62,675 nucleotides of DNA, from IMG/VR virus record IMGVR_UViG_3300022748_000002; one strand, given 5' to 3'. Below the pieces are notes generated by a model. It saw only the letters and a list, made by a program, of their open reading frames with translations, had not been told where the DNA came from and ran no database searches. Each line of letters opens with the position of its first letter. Within the stretch, counting starts at the first letter, position 1. Made by a program: the position numbers and the translations under genes. This document shows positions 5,058 to 62,675 of this stretch, piece after piece. The stretch comes from a virus.

Positions 5058-7883
5058 ATGGCAACTGACCAACAAGGCATCATGGCGTTGCCAAAAAATG
5101 GCCAAAAACAAGACACTCCTCAACTAGGTCTTGACGACTCTTACGATGCAATTCGCAAGGGTTTGGCAGAGGCCAGCCCACAGGATTCGATGCAAGTTCA
5201 GCAGCAGCTGAACCAAATGTTGCCCGCTTTGGACCAACTCACCGATGAGCAGCTCGACAGCTTGATCAACATTGTGCAGTACATGCACGATCACGAAGAT
5301 CAGTACAAAGAGCTGGTCGCCGAACTGGTCAAAAAAGGCGTTGTGGATGAGGGCACATTCCCTGAAGAGTACAACCCCGAAGTGATCGCCACGTTGGGTA
5401 TGGTGTTCTTGGAAGCCAAGCGTCAGCGTCAAGCATCTGCCCCACAAGGTCCCGTGCCTCCCATGGGCTTGGCCAAGGGCGGTATCGCTGAAGCAGCACG
5501 CATGGTGGCAGGCCATGGCCGCAACGGCGACACCATGCTGGCGCACATCAACAAACAAGAAGCAGCTTTGCTCAAGGCCCACGGCGGATCGGGCACCATC
5601 AACCCAAAGACTGGGTTGCCAGAGTACTGGGGCGGATTCATTGGTAATGCCATCAGCAGTGCTGTTGGTGCTGTAACTGGCGCAGTCAAATCCGTGGTCA
5701 ACGGTGTGGTGAACACCGTCAAATCCGTGGTGGGTTCTCCTATTGGCAAGGTGCTGGCCACTGCCGCGCTGGCCGCGTTCATCGGTCCCGCAGCCTTTGG
5801 CTTGTCCGGCGCTATGGGCGTGGGTGCACAGCTTGGTTTGGCTTCCATGGGTGCTTCCGTCTTGGGCGGTGGCAACCTGAAAGACGCTTTGCAAGCAGGC
5901 GCAAAAGGTTTCTTCCTTGGCGCTGCAGGCGCAGCGGCCGCCCCTACTTTGGGTGCAGCAACTGGTGTGACAAGCGCAGCAGGGCAGACTGCTTTGGGCG
6001 CAGGCGCAGCCGGCACAGGTTTGGGCTTGCTGACAGGCAAGGGCTTGCAAGGAGCTGTCAAGGAGGGCTTGACAGCTGCGACCGTGGCCGGATTGGCCAC
6101 CGGCGGCAGCAACATGGTTCAGGGCAAGGACTTCTTGACCCCTGCGTCTCCTCTGCCTGCTTCGGAAGTCCCTAAGACTCCCGACCAGATCAAAGCCGAT
6201 ATGGCACAGCAAGGCAACTTGTCTGTGGCCAACCAGCAAACACCTCCTCCCGGCACTGTCGGTGCTGGTCAAAGTGCAGACCCATTAGGCGACTTCATCA
6301 AGCAGAACGAAGCTTTCCGCACGGCCGCAAATACCCCTGCGGGGCCTGCTGCACCTGCTCCAACAAGCTGGACAGACAAGATTTCCGAGTTCTACGATAA
6401 GAACATCTCTCCCTCTGGCCGCGCGCAAGCAGGGTCGGATGAGGCTGTGCAGAAGATGATGGACAAATACGGCCTGACTCAACAACAGGTGCTGAATGCC
6501 CCTGAAAGTTCGGTGTTGGGCAAGCAGCTTGCTGCGGCCACGCCCGGCGTGTTGAGCAACTACGGTCCAGCGATTGCCGCGGGCCTCGGCGCAACAGCCT
6601 TGATGGGTGGTTTCAAGACTCCTGAGCAGCCACAAATGAGCCCACAAATGGCCAGCACCATGTCTGGCCAAGCCACGCGCGACCTGATGGCCGCTAATCC
6701 AAAGGATTATTTGGTGCAGAACCTCCCCGGCGTGCAGTACGACGACAAGGGCAACATCATTGGTTCCACTCCTTGGACACCACGCAAAGCAGCACAAACG
6801 GAAGTGGGCTCGAGCAGCTACATCCCATTCACGCTGCCCACCTACAACGCGCCTACGGGCAGTGTCGGTAGCCGACAAGTACAACAGCCATACAACACGG
6901 CTGACATGTACACCAACCTCATGCCTCCTCGTTATGCAGCGGACGGCGGCTTCATGCAGTCACAGCCTACCTTCCCCGGCACGCCATTGACCATGGACAG
7001 CGGACCTTTGATGGCCCAACAAGCGCACCCCTTGGCGATGAATACGCCCGGTGTGCCTATGAACATGCCCATGGGCTTGGCCAAAGGCGGTATTGCTGAC
7101 ATGGCTCACGCTTTGGCGGCACAGGGCCGCAACGGCGACACAATCTTGGCACACATCAACCCAGAAGAAGCCGCTATGCTCAAAGCACACGGCGGCTCTG
7201 GCACGATCAATCCACACACGGGACTGCCCGAGTACTGGGGTTTGGGAAACATTGCAGCATTGGTTCGCGACATGGTCGCCAATAATCCAGACCTAAAAAA
7301 TGCAGCATTGGCAAAGGAGGCGGGAAAAGGAGCCGCGATGCCTGCAGCCGCACCCGGAGTGCCTGTTGCTTCTGATCCAACGACTGCCACTGCACAGCAA
7401 AAGGCAGATTACGACGCAGCCATGAATGGCTACCAAGCGCAAATGCGCACATACAACGCACAAAATGCAGCGAATCAGCGCTTGAAGGACTACCACGCAC
7501 GCGTTGCAGCCCAACAGGCAGCGCCCGCTGCGGTGGACCCCTCGATTGCCATGGGGCAACAGGTTGGTGGCACTCTCAATCCAAGCTTAAGCAATGCCGA
7601 TTTCGCTGCTCGTTTGGCAGCAGGTGCACGTCGTCGTCCAGCAGGTGCAATGGCTGTCGGAGGTATTGCTTCTTTGGCCCCGGGCGGTTATCCTCGACGC
7701 ACAGGTCAAATCAGCGGTCCGGGGACCGAGACCTCAGACGACATCCCTGCAATGCTCTCCGACGGTGAATTCGTAATGACCGCCAAGGCCGTAAAAGGCA
7801 TGGGTGGTGGAAGCCGCCGAGCAGGCGCAAAGAAAATGTACGCTCTCATGCATCGTCTTGAGAAAAACGCAGCACGGGGATAA
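5058..7883 (+). CDS. Internal virion (ejection-type) protein, 941 aa, with an internal 56-aa duplication
   Basis: SD AGGAG. Gly/Ala-rich hydrophobic central region. Duplicated module MGLAKGGIA..GRNGDT.LAHIN..EAA.LKAHGGSGTINP.TGLPEYWG at nt 5463-5630 and 7071-7238. C-terminus SGPGTETSDDIPAMLSDGEFVMTAKAV. Confidence 0.55.
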   Translation: MATDQQGIMALPKNGQKQDTPQLGLDDSYDAIRKGLAEASPQDSMQVQQQLNQMLPALDQLTDEQLDSLINIVQYMHDHEDQYKELVAELVKKGVVDEGTFPEEYNPEVIATLGMVFLEAKRQRQASAPQGPVPPMGLAKGGIAEAARMVAGHGRNGDTMLAHINKQEAALLKAHGGSGTINPKTGLPEYWGGFIGNAISSAVGAVTGAVKSVVNGVVNTVKSVVGSPIGKVLATAALAAFIGPAAFGLSGAMGVGAQLGLASMGASVLGGGNLKDALQAGAKGFFLGAAGAAAAPTLGAATGVTSAAGQTALGAGAAGTGLGLLTGKGLQGAVKEGLTAATVAGLATGGSNMVQGKDFLTPASPLPASEVPKTPDQIKADMAQQGNLSVANQQTPPPGTVGAGQSADPLGDFIKQNEAFRTAANTPAGPAAPAPTSWTDKISEFYDKNISPSGRAQAGSDEAVQKMMDKYGLTQQQVLNAPESSVLGKQLAAATPGVLSNYGPAIAAGLGATALMGGFKTPEQPQMSPQMASTMSGQATRDLMAANPKDYLVQNLPGVQYDDKGNIIGSTPWTPRKAAQTEVGSSSYIPFTLPTYNAPTGSVGSRQVQQPYNTADMYTNLMPPRYAADGGFMQSQPTFPGTPLTMDSGPLMAQQAHPLAMNTPGVPMNMPMGLAKGGIADMAHALAAQGRNGDTILAHINPEEAAMLKAHGGSGTINPHTGLPEYWGLGNIAALVRDMVANNPDLKNAALAKEAGKGAAMPAAAPGVPVASDPTTATAQQKADYDAAMNGYQAQMRTYNAQNAANQRLKDYHARVAAQQAAPAAVDPSIAMGQQVGGTLNPSLSNADFAARLAAGARRRPAGAMAVGGIASLAPGGYPRRTGQISGPGTETSDDIPAMLSDGEFVMTAKAVKGMGGGSRRAGAKKMYALMHRLEKNAARG

Positions 7884-19658: not shown

Positions 19659-19696
19659 GATCTTTCTGCGCTTTCTTTAAAAAAGGTGGTGACACC

Positions 19697-19726
19697 TTGA
19701 AAAGTAGTGTACACTAATCGTACGTT
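19697..19726 (+). promoter_or_regulatory. Candidate promoter of the replication unit
   Basis: TTGAAA, 18 nt, TACGTT, then TTTAGAAAGGATAGTGTAAC-GTG (19747). Confidence 0.4.
19705..19716. promoter_or_regulatory. 12-bp perfect palindrome TAGTGTACACTA (operator-like)
   Basis: Lies in the spacer of the plus-strand promoter and next to the -10 of the minus-strand promoter. Confidence 0.3.
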
Positions 19727-19745
19727 TTTAGAAAGGATAGTGTAA
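19717..19745 (-). promoter_or_regulatory. Candidate face-to-face promoter for the SNF2 operon
   Basis: On the minus strand: TTACAC, 17 nt, TACGAT. It overlaps the plus-strand promoter. Confidence 0.35.
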
Positions 19746-19746
19746 C

Positions 19747-20088
19747 GTGACTGAACGAACTGCCACCGTGTATGTTGTGCAAGAGATGCCCAACCATGAC
19801 ATTGCTTCTGCAATGCGTTTTGGTGATCTAAGCGTCTTGCTGCCATCAAACACACAGATTGCTTTTTCTACTGTGCCCACCGTGCGCCTGCTCAAACGCA
19901 AGCTGCGCGGTTTCACAGACAAGGATTTCCTGTTGTTGACAGGAGACCCTGTAGCTATGGGCTTGGCCAGCTCGATAGCCGCAGCCTATAACTCTGGCCG
20001 CTACCGTGTGTTGAAGTGGGACCGTCGCGAACGCATGTACATCCCTGTTAGCATTGACATTACTGAGAATGGAGAAAGAGATGAGTGA
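19747..20088 (+). CDS. Hypothetical protein (113 aa)
   Basis: GTG start preceded by the conserved leader TAGAAAGGATAG. First gene of the rightward replication unit. Confidence 0.55.
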   Translation: MTERTATVYVVQEMPNHDIASAMRFGDLSVLLPSNTQIAFSTVPTVRLLKRKLRGFTDKDFLLLTGDPVAMGLASSIAAAYNSGRYRVLKWDRRERMYIPVSIDITENGERDE

Positions 20089-31641: not shown

Positions 31642-31670
31642 ATCTATCCTTTCTAAGAATCTTGACGATA

Positions 31671-31703
31671 CCATAACGAGGAGAACCTCGTCATGGTTTT
31701 TTT
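31671..31703 (+). terminator. Canonical hairpin plus T7 run oriented on the + strand inside a minus-strand unit
   Basis: CCATAACGAGG-AGAA-CCTCGTCATGG-TTTTTTT. In the sense of the local genes the run is A7 and precedes the stem. Confidence 0.4.
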
Positions 31704-38336: not shown

Positions 38337-38572
38337 TGCAAAGGCTCCTTCTTACCACGCTTGGTGGCCAAATCGTTATAGGCAGAGGCGACACCAGCCA
38401 AGGTGTGCTCCAAATCAATCCCCATGCCATGGCTCAAAGACGCAGTCGTCAAAATCAACGCGACATAGGCATCGACAGGGTTTTCAAAGTTCTCGTGCAA
38501 GATGTTCAACAACATCCGCGACGCATTCAACGTGTCACGGACCAAGGTGCTCTCATCAATATCAGGGCTCAT
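38333..38572 (-). CDS. Hypothetical protein (79 aa), first gene of the leftward arm
   Basis: ATG preceded by CTAGAAAGGATAGAGCG (the conserved leader) and a strong promoter-like site. Confidence 0.6.
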   Translation of the reverse strand: MSPDIDESTLVRDTLNASRMLLNILHENFENPVDAYVALILTTASLSHGMGIDLEHTLAGVASAYNDLATKRGKKEPLQ

Positions 38573-38612
38573 CGCTCTATCCTTTCTAGGGTTTTTGGGA
38601 AATCACGGGGTT

Positions 38613-38640
38613 ACTATAGCATACGATTATGTTCTTGCAA
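38613..38640 (-). promoter_or_regulatory. Sigma70-like promoter for the leftward arm
   Basis: On the minus strand: TTGCAA, 16 nt, TGC-TATAGT (extended -10). A leader ending CTAGAAAGGATAGAGCG-ATG (38572) follows. Confidence 0.55.
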
Positions 38641-38728
38641 ACACTTTTTTAGTTCTTTGTTGAACTATTTGGTAGGGGTTTACCCTTATACATGGTGGAG
38701 GGAAAAGGGCTGTTGATAAGTGGGTAAT

Positions 38729-38737
38729 TGTGGATAA
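38729..38737. promoter_or_regulatory. Perfect DnaA-box 9-mer (TGTGGATAA = TTATCCACA)
   Basis: Exact consensus. A 7/9 relative, TGTGGACAG, lies at 38741-38749. An AT-rich stretch lies about 150 bp downstream. Confidence 0.25.
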
Positions 38738-39070
38738 GTCTGTGGACAGGTTGGAAAAGTAATGAGGAAGTGTGCGTGGACCGCGGACCGAGGGCCTTGA
38801 GGAGTGGGTTAGGGTTTACCCTTAAAAGAGGGGGTATTTTGGACCGTGGATCGGGGCTTTTTCGCGAATTTTCGAATCCTATAGAGCCTCTGGCTGAAAA
38901 AAAAGTGTTTTATTTTTCAAGTATCTTGTAAAATGGACATTTCAGTGTAATGGACGAAATTTGAGAGGGGAATGATCCATTACGGCATGAAAAGTGAACT
39001 GTAGGGCAGTGTGAGAGGTGTATTTTGATTAAAAAACAGGCATTTTTCAGGGGGGCTCCGTGAGTCACTT

Positions 39071-39099
39071 TTGAAAATTCAAAAACTACCTCTTACCCT
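39071..39099 (+). promoter_or_regulatory. Candidate promoter for the rightward unit starting at 39142
   Basis: TTGAAA, 17 nt, TACCCT. It overlaps the inverted repeats TTTGAA-AA-TTCAAA and ACCC-TTTTT-GGGT. Confidence 0.35.
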
Positions 39100-39141
39100 T
39101 TTTGGGTCTATAGGGCCGCGCAACAACTTTGAAGGAACCAC

Positions 39142-39357
39142 ATGACAATCCCGCACGACATCCTGATGCCGCAGAATAACGGCCGATTCAAATACCCCTT
39201 TGGCACCATGCAGATCGGGGAGACTTTTTTGGTGACCATCAAGGAAGTGGCCGACAGCGTCCGCGTGTCCGCCATCAGCTACACCAAGTCGCATCCTGAT
39301 CGACATTTTCAAATCTACAAGGTCGACCAAGGGTGGCGCACCGTCCGCACAAGGTGA
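39142..39357 (+). CDS. Hypothetical protein (71 aa), paralog 1
   Basis: SD AAGGA. RFKYPFGTMQIGETFLVT...ADSVRVSAISY...GWRTVRT aligns with the next ORF. Confidence 0.6.
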   Translation: MTIPHDILMPQNNGRFKYPFGTMQIGETFLVTIKEVADSVRVSAISYTKSHPDRHFQIYKVDQGWRTVRTR

Positions 39358-39386
39358 TTGCACGAAAAGAATTCCGCCTTTACACT
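39358..39386 (+). promoter_or_regulatory. Candidate internal promoter between the two paralogs
   Basis: TTGCAC, 17 nt, TACACT. Confidence 0.4.
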
Positions 39387-39417
39387 CACGTACAGAAAAG
39401 TTTCCGAGAGTTACAAA

Positions 39418-39633
39418 ATGTACAAAGTAGATCGCGGGATTGAATATCCCGACAGCCGCACCCGATACCCATTCAATGACATGGAAGTGGGGGACAGCAT
39501 CCTGTTCACCGAGCGCGCGCCCGCAGACAGCGCCCGCGTGGCCGCTTTGCGGTTCGCCCGCATCCAGACACCACCATGGCGGTTTTCCCTGCGCACGGTG
39601 TCGAATGGTTTCCGCCTGTGGAGAACCTTGTAA
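39418..39633 (+). CDS. Hypothetical protein (71 aa), paralog 2
   Basis: Track ORF 39358..39633 trimmed to ATG 39418. RTRYPFNDMEVGDSILFT...ADSARVAALRF...GFRLWRT parallels the 39142 ORF. Confidence 0.55.
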   Translation: MYKVDRGIEYPDSRTRYPFNDMEVGDSILFTERAPADSARVAALRFARIQTPPWRFSLRTVSNGFRLWRTL

Positions 39634-40307
39634 TGGGAAAAAAGGACGTTTACAACGTACCGCCTGCACTGCGCGACAAAGCAGCGTCCCGCATGGCCAC
39701 CGAAGTGGCCCCGCTGCGAAAACAGCCCCGCACGGTCAACGCCAAGGAATGGAAGTTCATCACCGAGCTGGTAAGCGGGGACGGGCGCGTCACCATGAAA
39801 GAGGCGGCCATCAGGGCAGGGTACAAACCCAGCTCCGCCTCCGTCATGGCGTGGAAGCTGACAAACCCAGAATTGAACCCGCACGTGGTGGCCGCGATTC
39901 AGGCATACCGCGCAGAGTTGAATTCGAAGTACAACACCAGCTACGAGCGCCACATGCGCGACCTGCAGATCATCCGCGACAAAGCTTTGGAAAATGGTGC
40001 GTACGCGGCAGCCGTGCAGGCAGAGTATCGACGCGGCCAAGCCTTGGGCAGCATTTACGTGGACCGCAAGGAAATTCGCACGGGCACAATCGACAGCATG
40101 AGCAAGGAAGAGGTCCAGAAAAAGCTCGACGAATTGAAAAAGCTCTACGGCGGACCACCACCCAGCGCCTTGATTGACGCCAGCACAGGACAAATAATTG
40201 ACAGTCTCGAACGCGAAAAAGACCCGGCTTTTGACGCTGGAGTGGCAGAGCCTCCGCCCGATATATTTGAACGGGACAATGATTTGGGGCCCGACGATGA
40301 AACCTGA
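39633..40307 (+). CDS. terS: Terminase small subunit-like protein (224 aa)
   Basis: Trimmed to ATG 39633 (TAATG coupling). AKEWKFITELVSGDGRVTMKEAAIRAGYKPSSASVMAWKLTNPELNPHVVAAIQ matches the N-terminal HTH pattern of Terminase_2-type small terminases, as I recall it. Confidence 0.7.
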   Translation: MGKKDVYNVPPALRDKAASRMATEVAPLRKQPRTVNAKEWKFITELVSGDGRVTMKEAAIRAGYKPSSASVMAWKLTNPELNPHVVAAIQAYRAELNSKYNTSYERHMRDLQIIRDKALENGAYAAAVQAEYRRGQALGSIYVDRKEIRTGTIDSMSKEEVQKKLDELKKLYGGPPPSALIDASTGQIIDSLEREKDPAFDAGVAEPPPDIFERDNDLGPDDET

Positions 40308-40716
40308 GGCCAGATTTTCCGCGCGGGTGCGTGATGCCCTGATACGGTTCGACGTGGCAATTGAGCGCATTGAAAACCGCGTCAATCTGGGAATTCCTGA
40401 CATGTTGGTCGGCGTGGGCGACCGGTTTGTCATGATGGAGCTGAAAGTCGTTTCCAGCGGCTTGAAGGTTTCACTTCGGCCGCACCAGATCGCATTTTTG
40501 ACCCGGCACGCAGCGAAGGGCCGGCCGTGCTTTATTTTGGTCCTGCAGGAAGGGGGCACCACTTTGAAACCGGCGAAGATTCACCTATACCGGGGCAGCG
40601 ACGCCATGGACGTGGCCGCGCATGGCCTGCGCCATCCAGCATTGGCAGTGTGGCCGTCGCATGGCATGCCATGGGCGGACCTATACGGGTGGCTATCGAA
40701 TACCGAAAAGGCATAG
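40297..40716 (+). CDS. VRR-NUC-like PD-(D/E)xK nuclease (139 aa)
   Basis: Core GIPDMLVGVGDRFVMMELKVVSSGLKVSLRPHQIAFL. ATG 40297 (alternative ATG 40279). Overlaps the terS end. Confidence 0.65.
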   Translation: MKPEARFSARVRDALIRFDVAIERIENRVNLGIPDMLVGVGDRFVMMELKVVSSGLKVSLRPHQIAFLTRHAAKGRPCFILVLQEGGTTLKPAKIHLYRGSDAMDVAAHGLRHPALAVWPSHGMPWADLYGWLSNTEKA

Positions 40717-40721
40717 AAAAA

Positions 40722-40783
40722 ATCAACCGGGCCGGCCATTGTCCTGCGATATGATGGACACCCAATTTAGAAAGGATAGAGAA
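40722..40783 (+). promoter_or_regulatory. Cassette copy A (degenerate): leader retained, -35 and hairpin lost
   Basis: GAAAAAATCAACCGGGCCGGCCATTGTCCTGCGATATGATGG...TTTAGAAAGGATAGAGAA-ATG. Has a TATGAT -10-like hexamer but a poor -35. Confidence 0.3.
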
Positions 40784-40900
40784 ATGACACCCGCTCAAAT
40801 TTGCGAATACTATGACGCGCACCCAAACCTTACCCTGCGAGAGCTGTCGGCCATCACTGGCCTGAGCGTGCCCGCGTTGAAGGCCATATTGATGCCATGA
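40784..40900 (+). CDS. Mini HTH protein (38 aa)
   Basis: ATG directly after the leader TAGAAAGGATAGAGAA. MTPAQICEYYDAHPNLTLRELSAITGLSVPALKAILMP contains a classic HTH. Confidence 0.5.
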   Translation: MTPAQICEYYDAHPNLTLRELSAITGLSVPALKAILMP

Positions 40901-41037
40901 AGACCCGACGCAACCGCATGGCCGCGGTGCGACTTCGGACCCCGTTAAAACGCGAACCAGCAAAGCCGCTAAAGCCACAATTGTGGCGCGTGGTGTTCAT
41001 GATCGTGATGGCCACGATCCTGCACCACATCACGTGA
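40897..41037 (+). CDS. Small basic protein with C-terminal TM segment (46 aa)
   Basis: Not in the track. ATGA overlap. MKTRRNRMAAVRLRTPLKREPAKPLKPQLWRVVFMIVMATILHHIT. Confidence 0.4.
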   Translation: MKTRRNRMAAVRLRTPLKREPAKPLKPQLWRVVFMIVMATILHHIT

Positions 41038-41063
41038 CGGGGCTATCGGTCGCGCCTGCGCCA

Positions 41064-41148
41064 TTGAAAAAATCAATTGGACCGGCATTATTTCCGTGAT
41101 AATATTCCACCCAGTCGCAAACCCGCGACGCCTAGAAAGGATAGAGAC
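41064..41148 (+). promoter_or_regulatory. Cassette copy B: promoter, hairpin, leader
   Basis: A-tract. TTGGAC (41077-82), 17 nt, TGA-TAATAT (41100-05). Hairpin GTCGC-AAACCC-GCGAC (41114-29). TAGAAAGGATAGAGAC-ATG. Confidence 0.6.
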
Positions 41149-41844
41149 ATGCTGAAAACCGTACCCGTTACCGCCAATAAAAAGACCGGCCCCATTGCAG
41201 TGACTTACCGCAGTGGCACCCATGAAACTTATGCCACGTGCCCGAAGTCCTGCGCGCTGCACCCTAAGTCGGAAACCGGCACCACGCAGGTGGACGCGGA
41301 ATATCTGGCCGCTTTGCTGGACGCAGTGCCCCGTCGCGGTATCGCGTGGACTTATTCGCACTTCTCTGCTGCCCTGCTGCCCAAAGCAAAAAAGGGTCAG
41401 ACCGTGATCAACGCGTCCTGCGATAACGTGCACGAAGCGGTCGACGCAGTGGTGCGACTAGGTCGCCCAGCGGTATTGGCCGCACCCAGTGGCACCCAAT
41501 GGCCGCAGACGATCAACGGGGTAAGGTTTCACCGCTGCCCAGCTGAATTGGCCGACAATTTCACCTGCGCCCAATGCGGTAACGGTTCGCCATTGTGTGC
41601 ACGCGCGGACCGCAAAGACGTGGTGGTTTTTGTTGCCCACGGTAGCGGGGCCAAAAAGGTCGGGACCGGGTCGGGTGGATGCTATGCGGCCAGCGGGCCG
41701 ACGGCCATCCAATGGCATAACACCCGCAAAGCCGCGACACCAAACGACGCGCAGGCCCTGCGCGCATTCGCGAAGTCCCTGCCCGCTGGGTCCATGCTGC
41801 GCCACCACGTGGCCGGCGATATCGGCCACGAAGTATCGATTTAA
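41149..41844 (+). CDS. Cys-rich protein of unknown function (231 aa), possibly GP88-like
   Basis: ATG after cassette B. Motifs TCPKSC, FTCAQCGNGSPLC and GGCYAASG. The resemblance to phage GP88-type proteins is a recollection only. Confidence 0.6.
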   Translation: MLKTVPVTANKKTGPIAVTYRSGTHETYATCPKSCALHPKSETGTTQVDAEYLAALLDAVPRRGIAWTYSHFSAALLPKAKKGQTVINASCDNVHEAVDAVVRLGRPAVLAAPSGTQWPQTINGVRFHRCPAELADNFTCAQCGNGSPLCARADRKDVVVFVAHGSGAKKVGTGSGGCYAASGPTAIQWHNTRKAATPNDAQALRAFAKSLPAGSMLRHHVAGDIGHEVSI

Positions 41845-41923
41845 AAAATCAATTGGCCCGGTATTATTTCCGTGATAATATTCACCACGTCGCGATTTTG
41901 CGACGCCTAGAAAGGATAGAGAC
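41841..41923 (+). promoter_or_regulatory. Cassette copy C: promoter, hairpin, leader
   Basis: TTGGCC (41853-58), 17 nt, TGA-TAATAT (41876-81). Hairpin CGTCGC-GATTTT-GCGACG (41888-905). TAGAAAGGATAGAGAC-ATG. Confidence 0.6.
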
Positions 41924-42373
41924 ATGATCGACTTCAACGCATACAAAAACGGTTTTTTTGCAACCCGCGACAATCTGGACGACGCACTGGAATACGCGGC
42001 CGAAGTGGCCGCAGGGTCAAACGATAGCGCGGCCGTTTATACCGCCCTGCACGTGGTCCTGAATACTTTCATTGCCCAGCAGGAAAAGCAGGCACCGGCC
42101 ACCCCTGCCCCGCAGGCGGTAACCCTTACCCCATTGGTGCACGATATCGTCGCCCAGCAGGTAGAGCAGGCCATTGAAGCCCACGCGGACGGACTGCAGG
42201 AAAAAGTCGCGGAATTGGTGCAGGAATGGGCCGACGAAAATCTGCAGGCCCACGTGAGCACGGCCGTGAATGAATGGCTGGATGAAAACCTGAACGACCG
42301 CCTGCAGGGTGAAGGGCTTTGTGAAGCCATTCGCGACGCATTCCGCAACAATCTGCAGATCAGTATCAGCTAA
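41924..42373 (+). CDS. Hypothetical acidic helical protein (149 aa)
   Basis: ATG after cassette C. Confidence 0.6.
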   Translation: MIDFNAYKNGFFATRDNLDDALEYAAEVAAGSNDSAAVYTALHVVLNTFIAQQEKQAPATPAPQAVTLTPLVHDIVAQQVEQAIEAHADGLQEKVAELVQEWADENLQAHVSTAVNEWLDENLNDRLQGEGLCEAIRDAFRNNLQISIS

Positions 42374-42390
42374 TCGACCCGGCTGGACCG

Positions 42391-42475
42391 ATTGAAAAAT
42401 ACAATTGGACCGGCATTGTCTCTGTGATAATATTCAACCCGTCGCAACGTCGCGACGTTTAGAAAGGATAGAGAA
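42391..42475 (+). promoter_or_regulatory. Cassette copy D: promoter, hairpin, leader
   Basis: TTGGAC (42405-10), 17 nt, TGA-TAATAT (42428-33). Hairpin CGTCGC-AACGTC-GCGACG (42440-57). TAGAAAGGATAGAGAA-ATG. Confidence 0.6.
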
Positions 42476-43135
42476 ATGGCCCACGTTTACGAATCAAAAG
42501 AAATGCGTCACGGTTTCCGCGTTGAAGTCCTGCAGGATGAATGCGCGGAAAGTCCCCGCGAATGGGACAACGTCGGCACGATTGTGATTGGCGACCGCGT
42601 CCGGTATAACGTCGGCGACCGTGCTGCACCGGTGGCCCAGATCGACGCATTGTGCAAAGATCCCCAAAATATCTGGCTGCCCGTTTATATGCTGGATCAT
42701 TCAGGCATTCGCCTGAATACTTCGGGCTTCGGCTGCCCATGGGATAGCGGGCAGGTCGGCATTATCTACACCACGAAGGCGCGCGCGGTGCAGGAATGGG
42801 GCGGGAAAGTATGCACCGCGAAGGTACGCGCGGCCGCACTGGAATGCCTGCGGGCCGAAGTGGCCGCGCTGGATCAATTCGTGGCCGGCGACGTTTATTT
42901 TTACCGCGTGCAGGACGCCGAAGGCGACACCGTCGACGCGTGCCACGGTTATTACGGGACCGCCGACGCATTGGCCGAAGGTATCGCGGCCGCAGAGTAT
43001 CACGTGGCAGCGGTGGACGGTTTCCACGCATTGCAGGCCGAAAAAGCCGCGGCCCAATTTCATGCGGCCATTGTCGACCGCCTGCAGGCGTCGCCCAGCT
43101 GGGTCGCTGATCATGTGATTGTCCGCCACGTATGA
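42476..43135 (+). CDS. Conserved-looking phage/plasmid protein of unknown function (219 aa)
   Basis: ATG after cassette D. The motifs ESPREWDN...GD...YMLDHSGIRL...CPWDSGQVGIIY recall a widespread family with no known function. Confidence 0.65.
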   Translation: MAHVYESKEMRHGFRVEVLQDECAESPREWDNVGTIVIGDRVRYNVGDRAAPVAQIDALCKDPQNIWLPVYMLDHSGIRLNTSGFGCPWDSGQVGIIYTTKARAVQEWGGKVCTAKVRAAALECLRAEVAALDQFVAGDVYFYRVQDAEGDTVDACHGYYGTADALAEGIAAAEYHVAAVDGFHALQAEKAAAQFHAAIVDRLQASPSWVADHVIVRHV

Positions 43136-43335
43136 CGGCCAGCCACTACACCGCCGACGGGCTTTGTCCCGTCCACAATACCCGCGCGGTCGGCATGGTG
43201 CAGGAATTGCCGGCCCAATGGGCAGGCGTTTGCCCATACTGCGCGCGACGCATTACCACGGCCACCCAGCCCGCGTGGCTATCGCCTGCACCCGACCGAT
43301 TGAAAAATACAATTGGACCGGCTTTGTCGGCGTGA
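43132..43335 (+). CDS. Possible small zinc-binding protein (67 aa)
   Basis: ATGA overlap. CPVH...CPYC. The 3' end runs into cassette E, with the stop inside the promoter spacer. Confidence 0.4.
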   Translation: MTASHYTADGLCPVHNTRAVGMVQELPAQWAGVCPYCARRITTATQPAWLSPAPDRLKNTIGPALSA

Positions 43336-43383
43336 TAATATTCACCCCGTCGCAACGTCGCGACGATTAGAAAGGATAGAGAA
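43299..43383 (+). promoter_or_regulatory. Cassette copy E: promoter, hairpin, leader
   Basis: TTGGAC (43313-18), 17 nt, TGA-TAATAT (43336-41). Hairpin CGTCGC-AACGTC-GCGACG (43348-65). TAGAAAGGATAGAGAA-ATG. Confidence 0.6.
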
Positions 43384-43815
43384 ATGGGAAATCGTGCAGT
43401 TATCACAATTGGCCAGACATTCAACCCAGCGGCCGTGGGCGTTTATTTGCATTGGAATGGCGGACGCGCCAGCGTTGAAGGCTTTTTAAAAGCCGCGCGC
43501 CTGCTGGAATATCGCAGCCCAGCTGCGGACCCGTCCTATTCATTCGCCCGATTGGTGGCCGTCATTGGTGCATTTTTCCCCGACGGTTTATCTGTCGGCG
43601 TCGGCACCTGCACGCAGCTGGACTGCGACAATGGCGACAATGGCACCTATTTGATCGGCGACGATTGGCAGATTGTCGGCCGCCACTTTCACAGTGGCCC
43701 CGAAGAGATAAACCCAGAGAAGTCGGACGCGATAGCCGCGGCCATTGTTGAACGACTGCAGGCCGTGCAGTCCACCGCCGACGATCAGGACAAAAAAGAA
43801 AGGGCCGCAGCATGA
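43384..43815 (+). CDS. Hypothetical protein (143 aa)
   Basis: ATG after cassette E. MGNRAVITIG...GVYLHWNGGRASVEGFL...DCDNGDNGTYLIG. Confidence 0.65.
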   Translation: MGNRAVITIGQTFNPAAVGVYLHWNGGRASVEGFLKAARLLEYRSPAADPSYSFARLVAVIGAFFPDGLSVGVGTCTQLDCDNGDNGTYLIGDDWQIVGRHFHSGPEEINPEKSDAIAAAIVERLQAVQSTADDQDKKERAAA

Positions 43816-43970
43816 TCTACATACAACGACGCGACCGCGCCCAGCTGGAAACCGTGGACGAATTCCCGACAATGCGCGAAGCCCGTGCAATGCTGCAGGA
43901 ATACCGCACGGCCGACCCGTCCGCGGACTATTACCTAAGCCGACGCGCCTGCAGAGCGTGGCACGAATAA
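43812..43970 (+). CDS. Hypothetical protein (52 aa)
   Basis: Not in the track. ATGA overlap. MIYIQRRDRAQLETVDEFPTMREARAMLQEYRTADPSADYYLSRRACRAWHE. Followed by an intrinsic terminator. Confidence 0.45.
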   Translation: MIYIQRRDRAQLETVDEFPTMREARAMLQEYRTADPSADYYLSRRACRAWHE

Positions 43971-43991
43971 CCCAGCCGATACCGGCCACCC

Positions 43992-44015
43992 AGCCCGCAC
44001 AATGCGGGCTTTTTT
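43992..44015 (+). terminator. Intrinsic terminator ending the 39.1-44.0 kb unit
   Basis: AGCCCGCA-CAA-TGCGGGCT followed by a T-run. Confidence 0.75.
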
Positions 44016-44036
44016 GCGTCCGCGGTTAACCTGCGG

Positions 44037-44057
44037 TAATTGGGGACAGATCAACCG
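44037..44057 (+). repeat. 21-bp direct repeat, copy 1 (TAATTGGGGACAGATCAACCG)
   Basis: Identical to 44082-44102. Confidence 0.9.
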
Positions 44058-44081
44058 CACGGCCACGGGGGAAACGCTGAA

Positions 44082-44102
44082 TAATTGGGGACAGATCAAC
44101 CG
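44082..44102 (+). repeat. 21-bp direct repeat, copy 2
   Basis: Identical to 44037-44057. 45-bp period. Confidence 0.9.
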
Positions 44103-44163
44103 GTAAACTGCAGCCCGTAAACTAGGCCCACGGGCCCCGCACGGTCGACGCCTGAAACGTGGG

Positions 44164-44392
44164 CCACGGGCCCCGACCCGCCGGCCACGGCCCCCGGTCC
44201 GCCCAGCTGGACCCCTGCGCAGCGGCCCACGGGGCACCGGCCACGGCCACCGCACCCAGTACCCCGCACCGCTGGCCACGCCACCCCAGCCACGGCCCAC
44301 GATCCCCGACGCATGCACCACGCACCGCGCGCCCAGCCACCACGCCCACGCCCAGCGGTCCACGGGGCATGGGCCCAGCGGCCGCACCACGC
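44164..44392 (+). repeat. Degenerate heptanucleotide array (CCACG[GCA]N and CCNNNNN units), C-rich on the + strand
   Basis: CCACG[GCA] starts at 44164, 44185, 44227, 44241, 44276, 44290, 44297, 44318, 44346 and 44360, all congruent modulo 7. Most of the other in-register heptads begin with CC. Confidence 0.8.
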
Positions 44393-44584
44393 ACCGCGGA
44401 CCCCGACGCCCGAAGGGGGGAGGGCCATAAACGGCCCCGGTCCGCGCGGGCCAGCCTCCGCCCATGTTTCTGACATAGGATTTGTCCATAAATACTTATC
44501 AGTAAAATAGCGAACCCACCCCCTTGTTTAGAAAAAGGCTAGGGTGGGGTAATATATAAAAATTCCAGAACCTGAGGGTCTGCC

Positions 44585-46051
44585 ATGGCATACGCACCTG
44601 CTGACATTGAAGAAGAACGACTGCGCCTCGAGCTACGGCTCAAGCTCCTTGAAACGCACGAGCGCGCAACAACCAAATTCATCGACTTTTGCCAATACGT
44701 TTGGCCTGAAATGCTGGTCGGTGAGCACCATCGGATCATCGCGGACAAGTTCGACCGCGTCATCAGCGGCGACTGCAAACGCCTGATCATTGCCATGCCG
44801 CCCCGGCACGGTAAATCCCAGCTCGGGAGCTACTTGTTCCCCGCCTACTTGATGGGCCGCCTGCCTCAATCCAAGCTGATCGTCGGTTCGCACACCGCGG
44901 AGCTCGCTCAACGCTTCGGCCGGATGATCCGAAACCTCGTGGACGACGAAAAGTACAAAGAGCTCTTTCCAAACATGCTCCTGTCTGCCGACTCCAAGGC
45001 CGCCGGACGGTGGAACACGGCCCAAGGCGGGGAAGCCTTCTTCATCGGTAAGGGCGGCGCGATGACCGGGCGCGGCGGCGACATCATCATTTTGGACGAC
45101 ATCTTGGACGAACAGGATGCCAACTCTGAAACCGCGATGGAAAGCACGTGGGACTGGTACGAATCCGGCCCTCGTCAGCGTTTGCAACCGGGCGGCGCAA
45201 TCATCCTGATCAACACCCGCTGGAAAACAGACGATCCTGCCGGCCGCTTGATCAAGATGCAGAAAAACCTCAAGGCGGACCAGTGGGAGGTCTTGGAATT
45301 TCCTGCGATCCTGCCCTCTGGCAAGCCCCTTTGGCCGGGGTACTGGAAGATCGACGAATTGGAGAAGGTCAAGTTCTCCATCGGCCTGCCAAAATGGAAC
45401 GCCCAGTGGCAACAACAGCCGACCAACGCTGAGGGCGCGATCCTGAAGCGCGAATGGTGGCGCAAGTGGCAGTATTCGGAGCCACCATCCTGCGAGTACA
45501 TCCTGCAGTGCATGGACACGGCCTACTCCAAGAAGGAAACGGCTGACTTTTCCGTGATCAGCACTTGGGGCGTGTTCTATCCTGACGCGGATTCGGGTCC
45601 GAACCTCATCTTGTTGAACGTGCGCAAAGGTCGCTGGGATTTCCCAGAGCTCAAACGCGTCGCACGGGACGAGTACCAGTATTGGAAACCCGACAACGTC
45701 TTGATCGAGGCCAAAGCTACTGGCACGCCGCTGCAGCAAGAACTCCGAAAACTCGGAATCCCTGTCACCATGTACTCGCCCGGCGGGCGGCGCACGGGGC
45801 AAGACAAGATCAGCCGCGCCAACTCTGTTGCACCAATTCTGGAGTCCGGCATGGTCTGGTATCCGGAGGATCAGGAGTGGGCCGATGAGATGGTGGAGGA
45901 GTGCGCGGCGTTTCCCAACGGATCGAACGATGACCAAGTGGACACCGCGGTCATGGCTTGGAACCGGTTCCGCCAAGGCGGGTTTATCTCGCTCAAGGAT
46001 GACGAGTGGGACGAGCCAGAGGTCACGAACGCCCCTGTTGAGTATTACTGA
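44585..46051 (+). CDS. terL: Terminase large subunit (488 aa)
   Basis: Walker A IIAMPPRHGKSQ, Walker B GGDIIILDD, and a C-terminal RNaseH-like nuclease region (CMDTAYSKKETADFSV...NDDQVD). Confidence 0.85.
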   Translation: MAYAPADIEEERLRLELRLKLLETHERATTKFIDFCQYVWPEMLVGEHHRIIADKFDRVISGDCKRLIIAMPPRHGKSQLGSYLFPAYLMGRLPQSKLIVGSHTAELAQRFGRMIRNLVDDEKYKELFPNMLLSADSKAAGRWNTAQGGEAFFIGKGGAMTGRGGDIIILDDILDEQDANSETAMESTWDWYESGPRQRLQPGGAIILINTRWKTDDPAGRLIKMQKNLKADQWEVLEFPAILPSGKPLWPGYWKIDELEKVKFSIGLPKWNAQWQQQPTNAEGAILKREWWRKWQYSEPPSCEYILQCMDTAYSKKETADFSVISTWGVFYPDADSGPNLILLNVRKGRWDFPELKRVARDEYQYWKPDNVLIEAKATGTPLQQELRKLGIPVTMYSPGGRRTGQDKISRANSVAPILESGMVWYPEDQEWADEMVEECAAFPNGSNDDQVDTAVMAWNRFRQGGFISLKDDEWDEPEVTNAPVEYY

Positions 46052-60763: not shown

Positions 60764-62675
60764 ATGACGACAGCTTACACCTCCCTCTTAGGTCTGGCCC
60801 TCCCGGTCACAGGCGAACTCCAAGGTACTTGGGGCGACACAGTCAACAACAGCATCACTTCGCTGTTGGATTCAGCTGTTGCAGGCACCACGACCATCAG
60901 CACAGATGGGGATGTAACGCTCTCAACGACCACTGGCGCGGCCAATCAAGCACGTGAAGCAATTCTGCTGTTCTCTGGTGCACGCACCGCGCAGCGCACA
61001 ATCACAGCTCCTGCACAGTCCAAGATTTACACTGTCATCAACGCCACCACTGGCGGCTATGCGGTCAAGTTGGTCGGCGCAGGCCCAACTACAGGTTTGA
61101 CCATTCCCAACGGCGCAACAGCTGTCGTGGCATGGAACGGCTCTGACTTCATCGAAATCGGCTCTGGCACGATTGGCAACCTGACTGTCAATGGTAACTT
61201 GACTGTTACAGGCACATCGACCTTGACAGGCGGCGCAACCATCCAAGGTTTGACAGTCGGCAAGGGCGCCGGTGCTGTGGCTACCAACACTGCTGTTGGT
61301 GCTAGTGCTTTGGCGACAAACTCAACAGGAGCTCAAAACACCGCAATTGGTATCAATGCTCTGAAGTTGGCTACTGATTCACTGAACACGGCTGTTGGTA
61401 CAAACTCATTGCAGACGCAATCAACTGGCTACCGCAATACTGCCGTTGGCGCTCAGTCATTTCCCGTGCTGACCACTGGAATCGACAACGTAGCTGTTGG
61501 TACATACGCAGGAAATGGAACAACAACAGGCTCATCTAACACTGCGCTTGGTTCTAACGCTCTCTACTCCAACACCACAGCCTCTAACAACACTGCTGTT
61601 GGGTATCAGGCTGGGTACACAAATACCACTGGTGATCTGCTTACAGCTATTGGTCGTTTTGCTTTGTATAGCAACACCACTGGTACACGAAACATAGCTG
61701 TTGGCGACAACTCTTTGGGGCTAAACACCACAGGAAACTACAACACAGCGCAAGGCTATCAAGCCCTTTACTCCAACACCACAGCCAATGAAGGTACTGC
61801 TGTCGGCTACCAAGCATCGTATTCAAACACCACAGGTGTTAACTCGTCGTTCGGCAGTTCCGCGCTAAAGAACACCACCACTGGCACATCGAATACGGCC
61901 ATTGGTAAGAACTCAGTTCAGTTGAACACCACAGGCAACTACAACACTGCGCTTGGAGAATATGCCCTTTACTCCAACACCACATACTCTGCAAACGTAG
62001 CTGTCGGTTACAGCGCTGGATACACAGCCAACGGAGCGACTGTCACAGCAGTTGGCCACCAAGCCGCTTATTCCGCAAGCACAACAGGCCACGTAACCGC
62101 CTTCGGTTATCAGGCGGGCTACGGGTACACCAGCGTCTCTGAAAACTCGTCCAGTACATACATCGGATTCCGCTCTGGCTACAGCGGAACTATTACCGGC
62201 CGCGACAACACTTCTGTTGGCGGCGCAAGCTCGTACTCAATGTCAAGCGGTTCGCTCAATGCGGCACTGGGCGCCTATGCGTTGTTCGCAAACACTACTG
62301 GTAATAGCAATGCAGTTGTTGGTTACTCTGCCCTTACTTCAAACACAACAGGCTCAGGAAACTCTGCATTCGGATATGTCGCTGGGCAGGCTGGAACTGT
62401 CGCCAACAACGTGTCTTACTTCGGATATGCCGCAGGCCAGTACCAGACAGGAAATTACAACACAGCGGTTGGCTCGAACGCGATGCAAGGGACCGCAGCT
62501 TCGACAGGAACCAGCAATACTGCTGTTGGCATGTCAGCTCTTGCATCTAACACCACAGCCTCTAACAACACTGCTGTGGGGTATCAAAGTCTTTATACAA
62601 ACACTACTGGCACATACAATGCCGCTGTGGGGTATCAATCCCTTTTTGCCAACACAATAGCAAACTACAACACTG
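60764..62675 (+). CDS. Tail fibre, N-terminal part (ORF open at the window end, continues at base 1 of the circular genome)
   Basis: SD AAGGA. No in-frame stop to the window end. The N-terminus MTTAYTSLLGLALPVTGELQGTWGDTVNNSITSLLDSAVAG is typical of podovirus fibre/adaptor N-termini, from recollection. Repeats of N-T-A-x-G-x-x-A follow. Confidence 0.8.
   Translation, partial: MTTAYTSLLGLALPVTGELQGTWGDTVNNSITSLLDSAVAGTTTISTDGDVTLSTTTGAANQAREAILLFSGARTAQRTITAPAQSKIYTVINATTGGYAVKLVGAGPTTGLTIPNGATAVVAWNGSDFIEIGSGTIGNLTVNGNLTVTGTSTLTGGATIQGLTVGKGAGAVATNTAVGASALATNSTGAQNTAIGINALKLATDSLNTAVGTNSLQTQSTGYRNTAVGAQSFPVLTTGIDNVAVGTYAGNGTTTGSSNTALGSNALYSNTTASNNTAVGYQAGYTNTTGDLLTAIGRFALYSNTTGTRNIAVGDNSLGLNTTGNYNTAQGYQALYSNTTANEGTAVGYQASYSNTTGVNSSFGSSALKNTTTGTSNTAIGKNSVQLNTTGNYNTALGEYALYSNTTYSANVAVGYSAGYTANGATVTAVGHQAAYSASTTGHVTAFGYQAGYGYTSVSENSSSTYIGFRSGYSGTITGRDNTSVGGASSYSMSSGSLNAALGAYALFANTTGNSNAVVGYSALTSNTTGSGNSAFGYVAGQAGTVANNVSYFGYAAGQYQTGNYNTAVGSNAMQGTAASTGTSNTAVGMSALASNTTASNNTAVGYQSLYTNTTGTYNAAVGYQSLFANTIANYNT
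62549..62675. repeat. 127-bp exact duplicate of bases 1-127 (circular-assembly overlap)
   Basis: Base-for-base identity read directly. The fibre reading frame is continuous across the join. Confidence 0.9.

Follow-up and report, generated by a model that had tools for sequence, protein, structure and literature searches.

A repeated cassette of predicted promoter, 5′ hairpin and start-associated leader in the terS–terL island of an uncultivated freshwater phage

The stretch of DNA analysed here, IMG/VR virus record IMGVR_UViG_3300022748_000002 (62,675 nucleotides, nt; this whole stretch is referred to as the window), raises the question of why one unit of about 85–110 nt recurs immediately ahead of five ATG codons in a 2.7 kb island between the genes for the small (terS) and large (terL) terminase subunits of a phage. 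We read this unit, the cassette, with moderate confidence as a portable and self-contained expression unit of an uncultivated freshwater phage lineage, in which a predicted promoter, a 5′ hairpin and a Shine–Dalgarno leader would be combined and whose repetition would also provide homology for recombination.

The cassettes of the window and of its relatives

One decayed copy (A) and four full copies (B–E) were found ahead of the ATG codons at 40784, 41149, 41924, 42476 and 43384, respectively. The unit had been proposed in an initial annotation of the window; it was confirmed by reading of the sequence and lies far above chance. The island comprises the following features, in which the open reading frames (ORFs) are given with their length in amino acids (aa).

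39576–40307: terS (phrog_51), the left neighbour of the island
40691–40786, + strand: cassette A (decayed), with GGCTATCG at 40691–40698, the A-tract at about 40713–40726, TATGAT at 40750–40755, the leader at 40768–40781 and ATG 40784 of a 38-aa ORF
40897–41037, + strand: 46-aa ORF without a cassette, its start overlapping the stop of the 38-aa ORF (ATGA)
41041–41151, + strand: cassette B, with GGCTATCG at 41041–41048, the A-tract at 41064–41076, −35 TTGGAC at 41077–41082, a 17-nt spacer, TG at 41097–41098, −10 TAATAT at 41100–41105, GTCGC at 41114–41118, loop AAACCC, GCGAC at 41125–41129, the leader at 41133–41146 and ATG 41149 (DUF7227 protein)
41816–41926, + strand: cassette C, which overlaps the end of the DUF7227 gene with its 5′ part (stop at 41842–41844, within the A-tract), with −35 TTGGCC at 41853–41858, −10 TAATAT at 41876–41881, CGTCGC at 41888–41893, loop GATTTT, GCGACG at 41900–41905, the leader at 41908–41921 and ATG 41924 (149-aa ORF)
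42369–42478, + strand: cassette D, with GCTAATCG at 42369–42376, −35 TTGGAC at 42405–42410, −10 TAATAT at 42428–42433, CGTCGC at 42440–42445, loop AACGTC, GCGACG at 42452–42457, the leader at 42460–42473 and ATG 42476 (219-aa ORF, phrog_6186)
43132–43335, + strand: ORF without a cassette, its start overlapping the preceding stop (ATGA)
43277–43386, + strand: cassette E, with GGCTATCG at 43277–43284, −35 TTGGAC at 43313–43318, −10 TAATAT at 43336–43341, CGTCGC at 43348–43353, loop AACGTC, GCGACG at 43360–43365, the leader at 43368–43381 and ATG 43384 (143-aa ORF)
43812–43970, + strand: ORF without a cassette, its start overlapping the preceding stop (ATGA)
43992–44010, + strand: hairpin resembling an intrinsic terminator, AGCCCGCACAATGCGGGCT followed by TTTTTT, at the end of the island
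44585–46051: terL, the right neighbour of the island

The promoter part of copies B–E has an A-rich tract followed by TTGG(A/C)C and then a spacer, always 17 nt long and with TGA at its end, before TAATAT. After a further 6–8 nt follow the hairpin (C)GTCGC-N6-GCGAC(G), 2–3 nt, the leader TAGAAAGGATAGAG, 2 nt and the ATG; the loops of B to E read AAACCC, GATTTT, AACGTC and AACGTC. Copy A retains the A-tract, a TATGAT hexamer and the leader, and is devoid of TTGGAC and of the hairpin. The 14-nt leader (at most two mismatches) occurs eight times in the window against 0.06 expected, always in gene orientation and at five of the eight sites within the island, while GTCGC-N6-GCGAC occurs four times against 0.15 expected and only at cassettes B–E. 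The cassette repeat families were also recovered independently by a repeat finder. Cassettes B and C share 88 % identity across about 88 nt, and five of their approximately 10 differences fall in the 6-nt loop (41119–41124 versus 41894–41899), which is either hypervariable or replaced as a block.

The five cassettes head five units with eight ORFs in total. The initial annotation placed a cassette before each of five consecutive genes; three further ORFs of the island have none, one of which, the 46-aa ORF, has homologues in L057, L076 and L036 (L-numbers denote fetched related loci, L001 being phage DSL-LC04).

Three further leader copies lie outside the island.

38575–38641, − strand: exact leader, ATG 38572 of the first gene of a leftward operon; the promoter-like sequence TTGCAA-16-TGCTATAGT is followed by a 24-nt unstructured linker before the leader
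31642–31700, − strand: leader with one mismatch, ATG at about 31641 of a membrane protein gene; A-tract and promoter-like site, the spacer of which holds the palindrome ACGAGGttctCCTCGT
19690–19749, + strand: leader at 19729 with one mismatch, GTG 19747

Each of the three heads the first gene of another transcription unit, the GTG at 19747 being the start codon with which the replication module (Pam3 gp32-like, gp33-like, primase, UvrD helicase and DNA polymerase A) opens. Their promoter-like sequences differ and none possesses the GTCGC hairpin. Within the window the leader marks only first genes of early or accessory units and no structural genes.

The unit is retained in relatives that carry the same genes, as the initial annotation had asked. 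An exact pattern scan identified the leader followed by NNATG in at least 120 IMG/VR contigs; among the contigs listed, about 86 encode the TerS (75–92 % aa identity) and the DUF7227 protein of the phage group to which the window belongs, and 65 encode TerL. The cassettes of these relatives are concentrated in the terS–terL island. In nearly all related copies the 95 nt upstream contain an A-rich tract, TTGNNN, a spacer, a TATAAT-like hexamer, a hairpin and, after 2–7 nt, the leader. A motif-independent sample was obtained by fetching 80 loci through DUF7227 protein similarity, from at least 588 IMG/VR contigs with a relative. Here the 13-nt core of the leader, AGAAAGGATAGAG (at most two mismatches), was present in 45 of the 58 distinct regions upstream of DUF7227 orthologues, the proteins themselves being only 69–94 % identical. 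Regions lacking the core either belonged to genes inside operons or carried variant leaders grading toward the type found in DSL-LC04, the syntenic island of which (L001, 6190–9050) has five analogous cassettes with the leader ACATACAGGAGAAA and unrelated hairpins. Intermediate leaders (CATACAG...AGAAAG...) were found in some IMG/VR relatives.

Several leader copies reside on short contigs binned into metagenome-assembled genomes of Crocinitomicaceae, Armatimonadetes and Gammaproteobacteria (L133, L131/L201 and L126). These multi-copy contigs look like misbinned contigs of this phage group and not like prophages.

Hairpin, leader and promoter

The initial annotation had left open whether the invariant stem reflects an RNA stem-loop or a DNA operator. 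In L057 and L076, the closest relatives, the stem is likewise invariant and the loops vary (GATTGT, ACTTTC, ACCGTC and AACTTC); the orthologues of cassette E, for example, keep the stem with the loops ACCGTC (L057) and AACTTC (L076). An invariant stem with a free loop cannot on its own separate an RNA helix from an operator, and the wider family is more informative. Within the 42 nt that precede the leader, the best perfect stem reached at least 7 base pairs (bp) in 52 of 134 unique cassettes compared with 0.5 % of shuffled sequences, and at least 54 different 5′ arms were present among the same 134 cassettes. What is conserved in the hairpin is its structure more than its sequence. In a loop-anchored gapless alignment, compensatory changes on both sides were found at all eight stem positions among 17 hairpins, a set chosen for perfect stems, so that their 100 % pairing is circular and only their diversity counts. 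Pairs of cassettes on the same contig shared the inner 5 bp of the stem in three of 30 cases and differed in 27, and therefore no single half-site is used per genome. Among imperfect stems, mismatches of the G·U type on the sense strand outnumbered those of the A·C type by 14 to 4 (P = 0.03), a modest bias among related sequences.

The position of the stem is constrained as well. The distance from the −10 hexamer to the stem is 6–7 nt in 31 and 4–8 nt in 45 of 63 cassettes (6–8 nt in the window), so that the onset of the stem would coincide with the predicted +1. The hairpin is part of the predicted minimum-free-energy fold of all four 5′ untranslated regions of the window. RNAalifold, applied to a MAFFT alignment of 34 cassettes, predicted no structure, the variable hairpins being misaligned; it was replaced by the loop-anchored gapless alignments and by alignment-free stem statistics against shuffled sequences. 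A search of positions 38400–44700 against Rfam 15 gave no match at E-values up to 1. The case for the hairpin is comparative, not energetic, and from it we conclude that selection acts on a stem-loop in the sense-strand RNA, predicted to form the extreme 5′ end of the mRNA. Its role may be protection from 5′-end-dependent decay and, compatibly with this, insulation of the leader from variable coding sequence.

The association of the leader with start codons is strict. All 274 distinct core copies in the fetched loci have a start codon within 0–4 nt, and in each case the ORF behind it is 30 aa or longer; the distance from core to start is 2 nt in 224 of the 274 and the start is ATG in 273. Some leader copies in relatives are located inside operons, where neither promoter nor hairpin is present, which argues that the leader is by itself a putative translation-initiation signal able to stand alone. 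It is best read as a presumptive extended Shine–Dalgarno region. The other genes of the window have shorter (A)AAGGA(G) motifs, 6–9 nt before the ATG, and the first eight leader nucleotides, AGAAAGGA, are the longest version of this motif. The remainder, TAGAG and 2 nt more, is rich in purines and unable to fold back on itself. A recurring GATAG theme in hairpin loops, at the base of the upstream stem and in the leader was dropped, as it is minor in the hairpin loops.

The case for the promoter is made by the 17-nt spacing, the TG extension, the A-tract at the position of a proximal UP element and the family-wide TTGNNN and TATAAT-like hexamers, from which we infer promoter activity and the site of transcription start. 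In the cassettes of relatives the −35 hexamers are TTGACA, TTGCAA or TTGGMC and the −10 hexamers are TATAAT-like. The unit has the anatomy of a sigma-70-type promoter, as postulated in the initial annotation, with a short predicted 5′ untranslated region behind it, and is conserved. The alternative register TTGAAA-16-CATTAT, called by the consensus scan in copies B and C only, was rejected since it is not conserved in D, in E or in relatives.

No good terminator was called between the units of the island by a terminator scan, the only good one being that at 43992–44010, after the last unit. The absence of terminators between units makes nested transcripts more likely, and five nested 3′-coterminal transcripts ending at 43992–44010 are the likely outcome predicted from this layout. 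The proposal that each gene is transcribed on its own is in this respect half right. No phage RNA polymerase was recognized among those large ORFs that were inspected.

Weak similarity further upstream of the promoter, also noted initially, is real: the element of the window reads GGCTATCG-N13–15-CGATTG, forms no stable stem, and has an ATCG that is unchanged in all 10 cassettes aligned from the subclade of the window. An upstream stem-loop (CTATCGG...CCGATAG) occurs in about 27 % of the cassettes of relatives (e.g. L036, L040, L025 and L013), with conserved outer half-sites (CTATCG...CGATAG), an inner stem that varies with compensatory changes and, behind it, an A-tract and no U-tract. The GGCTATCG...CGATTG of the window (40691–40726, 41041–41076 and 43277–43312) is a half-site remnant of this stem. 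The upstream stem-loop element could be a protein-binding site or a decayed hairpin.

Palindromes are enriched in two further zones of the cassettes of relatives, at the upstream stem and in the spacer between −35 and −10, neither of which is followed by a U-tract. In many related cassettes the spacer is a palindrome that bridges the TG-extended −10 and the 3′ half of the −35, for example TGCACAGCGGACAAAATGTCCGCTATAAT in L013 and TTGCACAGGCGTGAGCCTGTGCTATAAT in L056. A perfect spacer stem of at least 8 bp was found in 15 % of related cassettes compared with 0.3 % of shuffled sequences. Spacer palindromes do not occur in the island cassettes of the window and one is present at the 31.7 kb site (31660–31690, − strand).

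Rearrangements at cassettes, genome context and known analogues

L057 is the closest relative compared (TerS 92 % identical) and is collinear with the window except in two places, both of them bounded by cassettes. In slot A, the 38-aa ORF of the window is replaced in L057 by an unrelated ORF of about 120 aa, and the L057 slot combines a full promoter and a broken hairpin with a different gene. The 149-aa gene and one cassette are present in the window and absent from L057. In an alignment of ten cassettes, the 5′ half of window cassette C resembled the single L057 cassette D′, at the end of the DUF7227 gene, and its 3′ half was of the B type, with the junction within the conserved A-tract/−35 core. 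Cassette C was 93.8 % identical to L057 cassette B′, which occupies a non-orthologous slot, compared with about 83 % for the flanking genes. Moreover, the paralogous window cassettes D and E were 93 % alike, whereas D or E and their L057 counterparts were 82 % alike. That paralogues are more alike than orthologues indicates concerted evolution, presumably by recombination between cassettes.

The backbone of the island in 37 relatives with both terminase genes consists of a nuclease-like gene, the DUF7227 gene, a gene of about 318 aa that is not found in the window, the 149-aa family and the last small gene. The rest is mosaic, with 144 families among 419 ORFs and 88 singletons (crude ORF call), and most island genes of these relatives are cassette-led. 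The cassettes appear, on this comparison, to be seams at which single genes are swapped.

The nuclease-like ORF (40198–40716, + strand) overlaps the end of terS, has a PD-(D/E)XK-like motif and matches phrog_93 and phrog_2165 (endonuclease/helicase); it gave no match in Pfam or in a sequence search of solved structures. Every relative examined has it conserved at the left boundary of the island.

The first 127 nt of the window (1–127) are identical to the last 127 (62549–62675), and the phage genome is therefore a complete circular assembly of about 62.5 kb. Its only GenBank relative at the DNA level is DSL-LC04, a metagenome-assembled, unclassified phage; the only paper on that phage makes no mention of cassettes or motifs. 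The nearest cultured TerL proteins are those of Pelagibacter phages HTVC027P and HTVC023P (52–55 % aa identity), and HTVC027P, the nearest cultured relative, has no comparable island. Comparison of the island proteins with Pfam, PHROGs and NCBIfam returned only DUF7227, phrog_6186 and weak, sub-threshold helix-turn-helix (HTH) matches, and no function.

Other parts of the window also contain repeats. Between the island terminator and terL (44020–44440), a 20-nt sequence (AATTGGGGACAGATCAACCG) is directly repeated, with copies near 44039 and 44083, and is followed by a C-rich tract of about 300 nt made up of GGCCACGG/CCCACGG-like repeats; a similar tract occupies the same place in relatives (L057, 10220–10530; L001, 10270–10570). 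This region may be a packaging (pac) or replication region. Cassette spacers of relatives are filled with GGCCACGG-like palindromes, as in this tract. A 51-nt-periodic repeat (CAACACTGCTGTTGG...) is present in many diverged copies at 18–440 and 61285–62631, across the ends of the window, and probably represents one repeat-rich tail-fibre-like gene. About 550 nt of non-coding sequence (38600–39140), between the leftward operon with the minus-strand leader at 38575–38588 and the rightward genes on the terS side, are probably a divergent regulatory or origin region. A 173-nt direct repeat (79 % identity) is located at 5460–5632 and 7068–7240, inside large structural ORFs.

The initial annotation knew of no phage element with such an architecture; in fact there are close analogues in two groups of phages, although a literature search for the motif string itself yielded no relevant paper. 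Promoter-early stem-loop (PeSL) cassettes of T4-like myoviruses (Arbiol et al. 2010, PMC2839356; Comeau et al. 2014, PMC4122927) are likewise repeated intergenic composites of an AT-rich tract, a sigma-70-like N17 promoter, a Shine–Dalgarno sequence and the start codon of a small accessory gene, and the predicted promoters of four window copies (TTGG(A/C)C, 17 nt, TGATAATAT and A-tract) are of this kind. PeSLs also share clustering in a hyperplastic region, a location at insertions, deletions and replacements between close relatives (here the window versus L057 and L036) and degraded ‘half’ copies comparable to cassette A. However, the PeSL stem-loop lies just upstream of the promoter and is a terminator, whereas the conserved stem-loop described here is downstream of the −10 and is not followed by a U-tract, an upstream stem-loop being restricted to about 27 % of the cassettes of relatives and vestigial in the window. 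PeSLs have no counterpart of the invariant 13-nt leader, and the present phage, with a genome of about 62 kb and a TerL nearest to those of HTVC023P/027P-type pelagiphages, is not T4-like.

The leader itself resembles the start-associated sequences (SAS) and extended SAS (ESAS) of cluster K mycobacteriophages (Pope et al. 2011, PMC3203893). Both are 13-nt asymmetric motifs with a Shine–Dalgarno core that lie a few nucleotides before the ATG of a subset of non-structural genes (3–7 bp for SAS, 0–4 nt here), in many copies per genome and in one orientation, with long gaps upstream of the genes, conservation beyond the part that could pair with rRNA and an inverted repeat just upstream at about half of the sites. 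The SAS consensus is GGGATAGGAGCCC, compared with AGAAAGGATAGAG here, the host phylum and phage group are different and no promoter forms part of the SAS definition. The 17-bp imperfect repeats of ESAS keep their half-sites, lend no support to RNA pairing and were proposed to bind a DNA-binding protein, in contrast to the sequence-variable stems with compensatory changes described here. The cassette belongs to neither class and is a previously undescribed variant of phage regulatory cassettes.

For the hairpin there is a cellular parallel, in that 5′-terminal stem-loops stabilize mRNAs of Escherichia coli (Emory 1992; Bouvet & Belasco 1992, both as cited in PMC3997798). In the ompA and papA 5′ untranslated regions, as they are described there, a short hairpin with 1–2 nucleotides at most left unpaired at the 5′ end precedes a single-stranded ribosome-binding region. 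The ompA and papA cases concern individual cellular genes whose ends were mapped by experiment, whereas the module described here has a predicted 5′ end and is multi-copy and family-wide.

The cassette as a candidate expression unit

The mechanism that we favour has three parts. An A-rich UP-like tract, TTGNNN, a 17-nt spacer and a TG-extended −10 would form a promoter for the housekeeping RNA polymerase of the host. The short GC-rich hairpin would start at, or 1 nt past, the predicted transcription start; a base-paired 5′ end would shield the mRNA against 5′-end-dependent decay of the RppH/RNase E type, and the hairpin would stop the leader from pairing with whichever gene lies downstream. 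The invariant, purine-only leader of 13–14 nt would then present AGAAAGGA as a long Shine–Dalgarno sequence at optimal distance from the ATG, which would bear on translational strength. Since the same sequence of about 90 nt recurs between genes, the cassettes would also offer homology for recombination, through which single-gene modules could be added, deleted, replaced or homogenized. We consider this mechanism plausible.

Several observations weigh against this interpretation. Together, TTGGAC and TAATAT agree with the consensus at only seven of 12 positions, and the cassette promoters go uncalled in a plain consensus scan, so that the initial description of them as near-consensus was too strong. 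The 60-nt 5′ regions fold not significantly better than shuffled sequences (z = −0.9 to −2.2), to which the selection of the 17 hairpins for perfect stems must be added. About half of the promoter-bearing cassettes of relatives have no perfect stem of at least 6 bp, and the three window leader sites at 19729 (+), 31642 (−) and 38575 (−) have no such hairpin either, and therefore the hairpin is dispensable, not obligatory. For the leader, AGAAAGGA would pair over 8 bp, at an aligned spacing of about 5 nt, with a 16S rRNA 3′ tail that we assume to end in UCCUUUCU, and the GATAGAG half is conserved as strongly as this potential 16S-pairing half; a Shine–Dalgarno role alone does not explain that conservation. 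When 185,579 genomes of bacteria and archaea were scanned for the leader, 109 matches were obtained, compared with about 70 estimated by chance; multiple copies were confined to the short, apparently misbinned contigs described above, and no clue to the host emerged. Lastly, recombination is deduced from few events.

The conservation of the leader beyond its Shine–Dalgarno half leads to the alternative that it is the recognition site of a trans-acting factor, an RNA-binding protein or endoribonuclease of phage or host that would coordinate translation or decay in the manner of T4 RegA/RegB. All 13 nt are conserved, including a GATAGAG with no obvious 16S rRNA partner, while promoters, hairpins and coding sequences diverge; the restriction of the leader to first genes of early and accessory units agrees with this, and the same argument was made for the mycobacteriophage SAS motifs (PMC3203893). 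However, no candidate factor was identified and the genome contains no antisense copy of the motif. The DSL-LC04 subclade combines its own leader, ACATACAGGAGAAA, with the same architecture, and with the intermediates this fits drift and homogenization equally well; a purine-only unstructured stretch may moreover be selected for accessibility alone. We regard such a factor as unlikely. Somewhat less likely still, in our view, is that the cassettes are primarily recombination modules, PeSL-like and perhaps forming mini-circles, with palindromes as substrates of a nuclease or recombinase and expression as a secondary matter. The breakpoints inside cassettes, the best match at a non-orthologous slot, the concerted evolution, the mosaic island, the three zones of sequence-variable palindromes per cassette in relatives, the presence in all relatives of a PD-(D/E)XK-like nuclease gene at the edge of the island and the precedent of T4-like phages (PMC2839356, PMC4122927) would all suit this. 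Yet the strict positions of the leader before the start codon and of the hairpin after the −10 are explained by expression, ordinary homologous recombination between 90-nt repeats suffices and the island encodes no recombinase. A role in recombination complements the expression unit rather than excluding it.

The two remaining alternatives concern the hairpin. As a DNA operator near +10, GTCGC-N6-GCGAC would bind a dimeric phage regulator that switches the island genes together, such as the 38-aa HTH peptide or the MarR-like protein named in the initial annotation, or another. The inverted repeat is indeed perfect, the same at four of four full window cassettes and found nowhere else in the genome; it is kept in L057 and L076 while the loop drifts, it is positioned over the start site as repressor sites commonly are, and ORFs with weak, sub-threshold HTH matches in Pfam are near. 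Short-term purifying selection on an RNA helix, together with gene conversion among the copies, would give this pattern too. Across the wider family, 27 of 30 same-contig cassette pairs differ in stem sequence, and stems of 5–12 bp with loops of 3–9 nt have no common half-site. Both candidate regulators fare badly: L057 keeps its GTCGC stems although the 38-aa gene of that slot is replaced, and the MarR-like protein of L036 is 67 % identical, yet the stems of L036 are entirely different. Of the two possibilities raised initially, the RNA stem-loop is favoured by the varied arms, the compensatory changes, the 27 of 30 differing pairs and the 14 to 4 mismatch bias; an operator is without support and highly improbable. 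Hardly conceivable is a terminator or attenuator that would halt read-through from upstream or gate the downstream gene, as a GC-rich stem-loop between genes might suggest; one relative (L016) does have a genuine terminator-like hairpin, T-run included, at this place. Behind the stem, the window cassettes read GCC, CC, TT or AT before the purine-rich leader, and a U-tract is missing; the hairpin is not picked up by the terminator scan, and it lies downstream of the −10 of its own promoter, at the predicted +1.

A bolder version of the expression-unit reading, which we hold to be doubtful, is a standardized mobile cassette with up to three palindromes conserved in structure and variable in sequence (one ahead of the promoter, one in its spacer and one at the mRNA 5′ end), together with the leader, read by a dedicated phage or host factor, in which gene and cassette move as a unit. 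If this were true, a PeSL-like mini-circle or a structure-guided exchange would move the cassette with one gene, and the terS–terL island would be the counterpart of an integron's cassette array for accessory genes, but one that carries promoters.

If the cassette is the portable expression unit that we propose, cassette-mediated gene shuffling, so far described from T4-like phages, would extend to an unrelated and environmentally abundant lineage, and the cassettes would pinpoint where the fast-evolving accessory genes of this lineage are located. The hundreds of natural variants of promoter, 5′ hairpin and leader form a comparative data set on the function of 5′ hairpins and of over-conserved leaders, a question that has been open for SAS since 2011 (PMC3203893). 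As a compact and insulated expression unit the cassette would be a candidate genetic part for the non-model freshwater bacteria that these phages infect. For annotation, the 13-nt core can serve as a precise marker of true start codons and of the starts of transcription units in these genomes.

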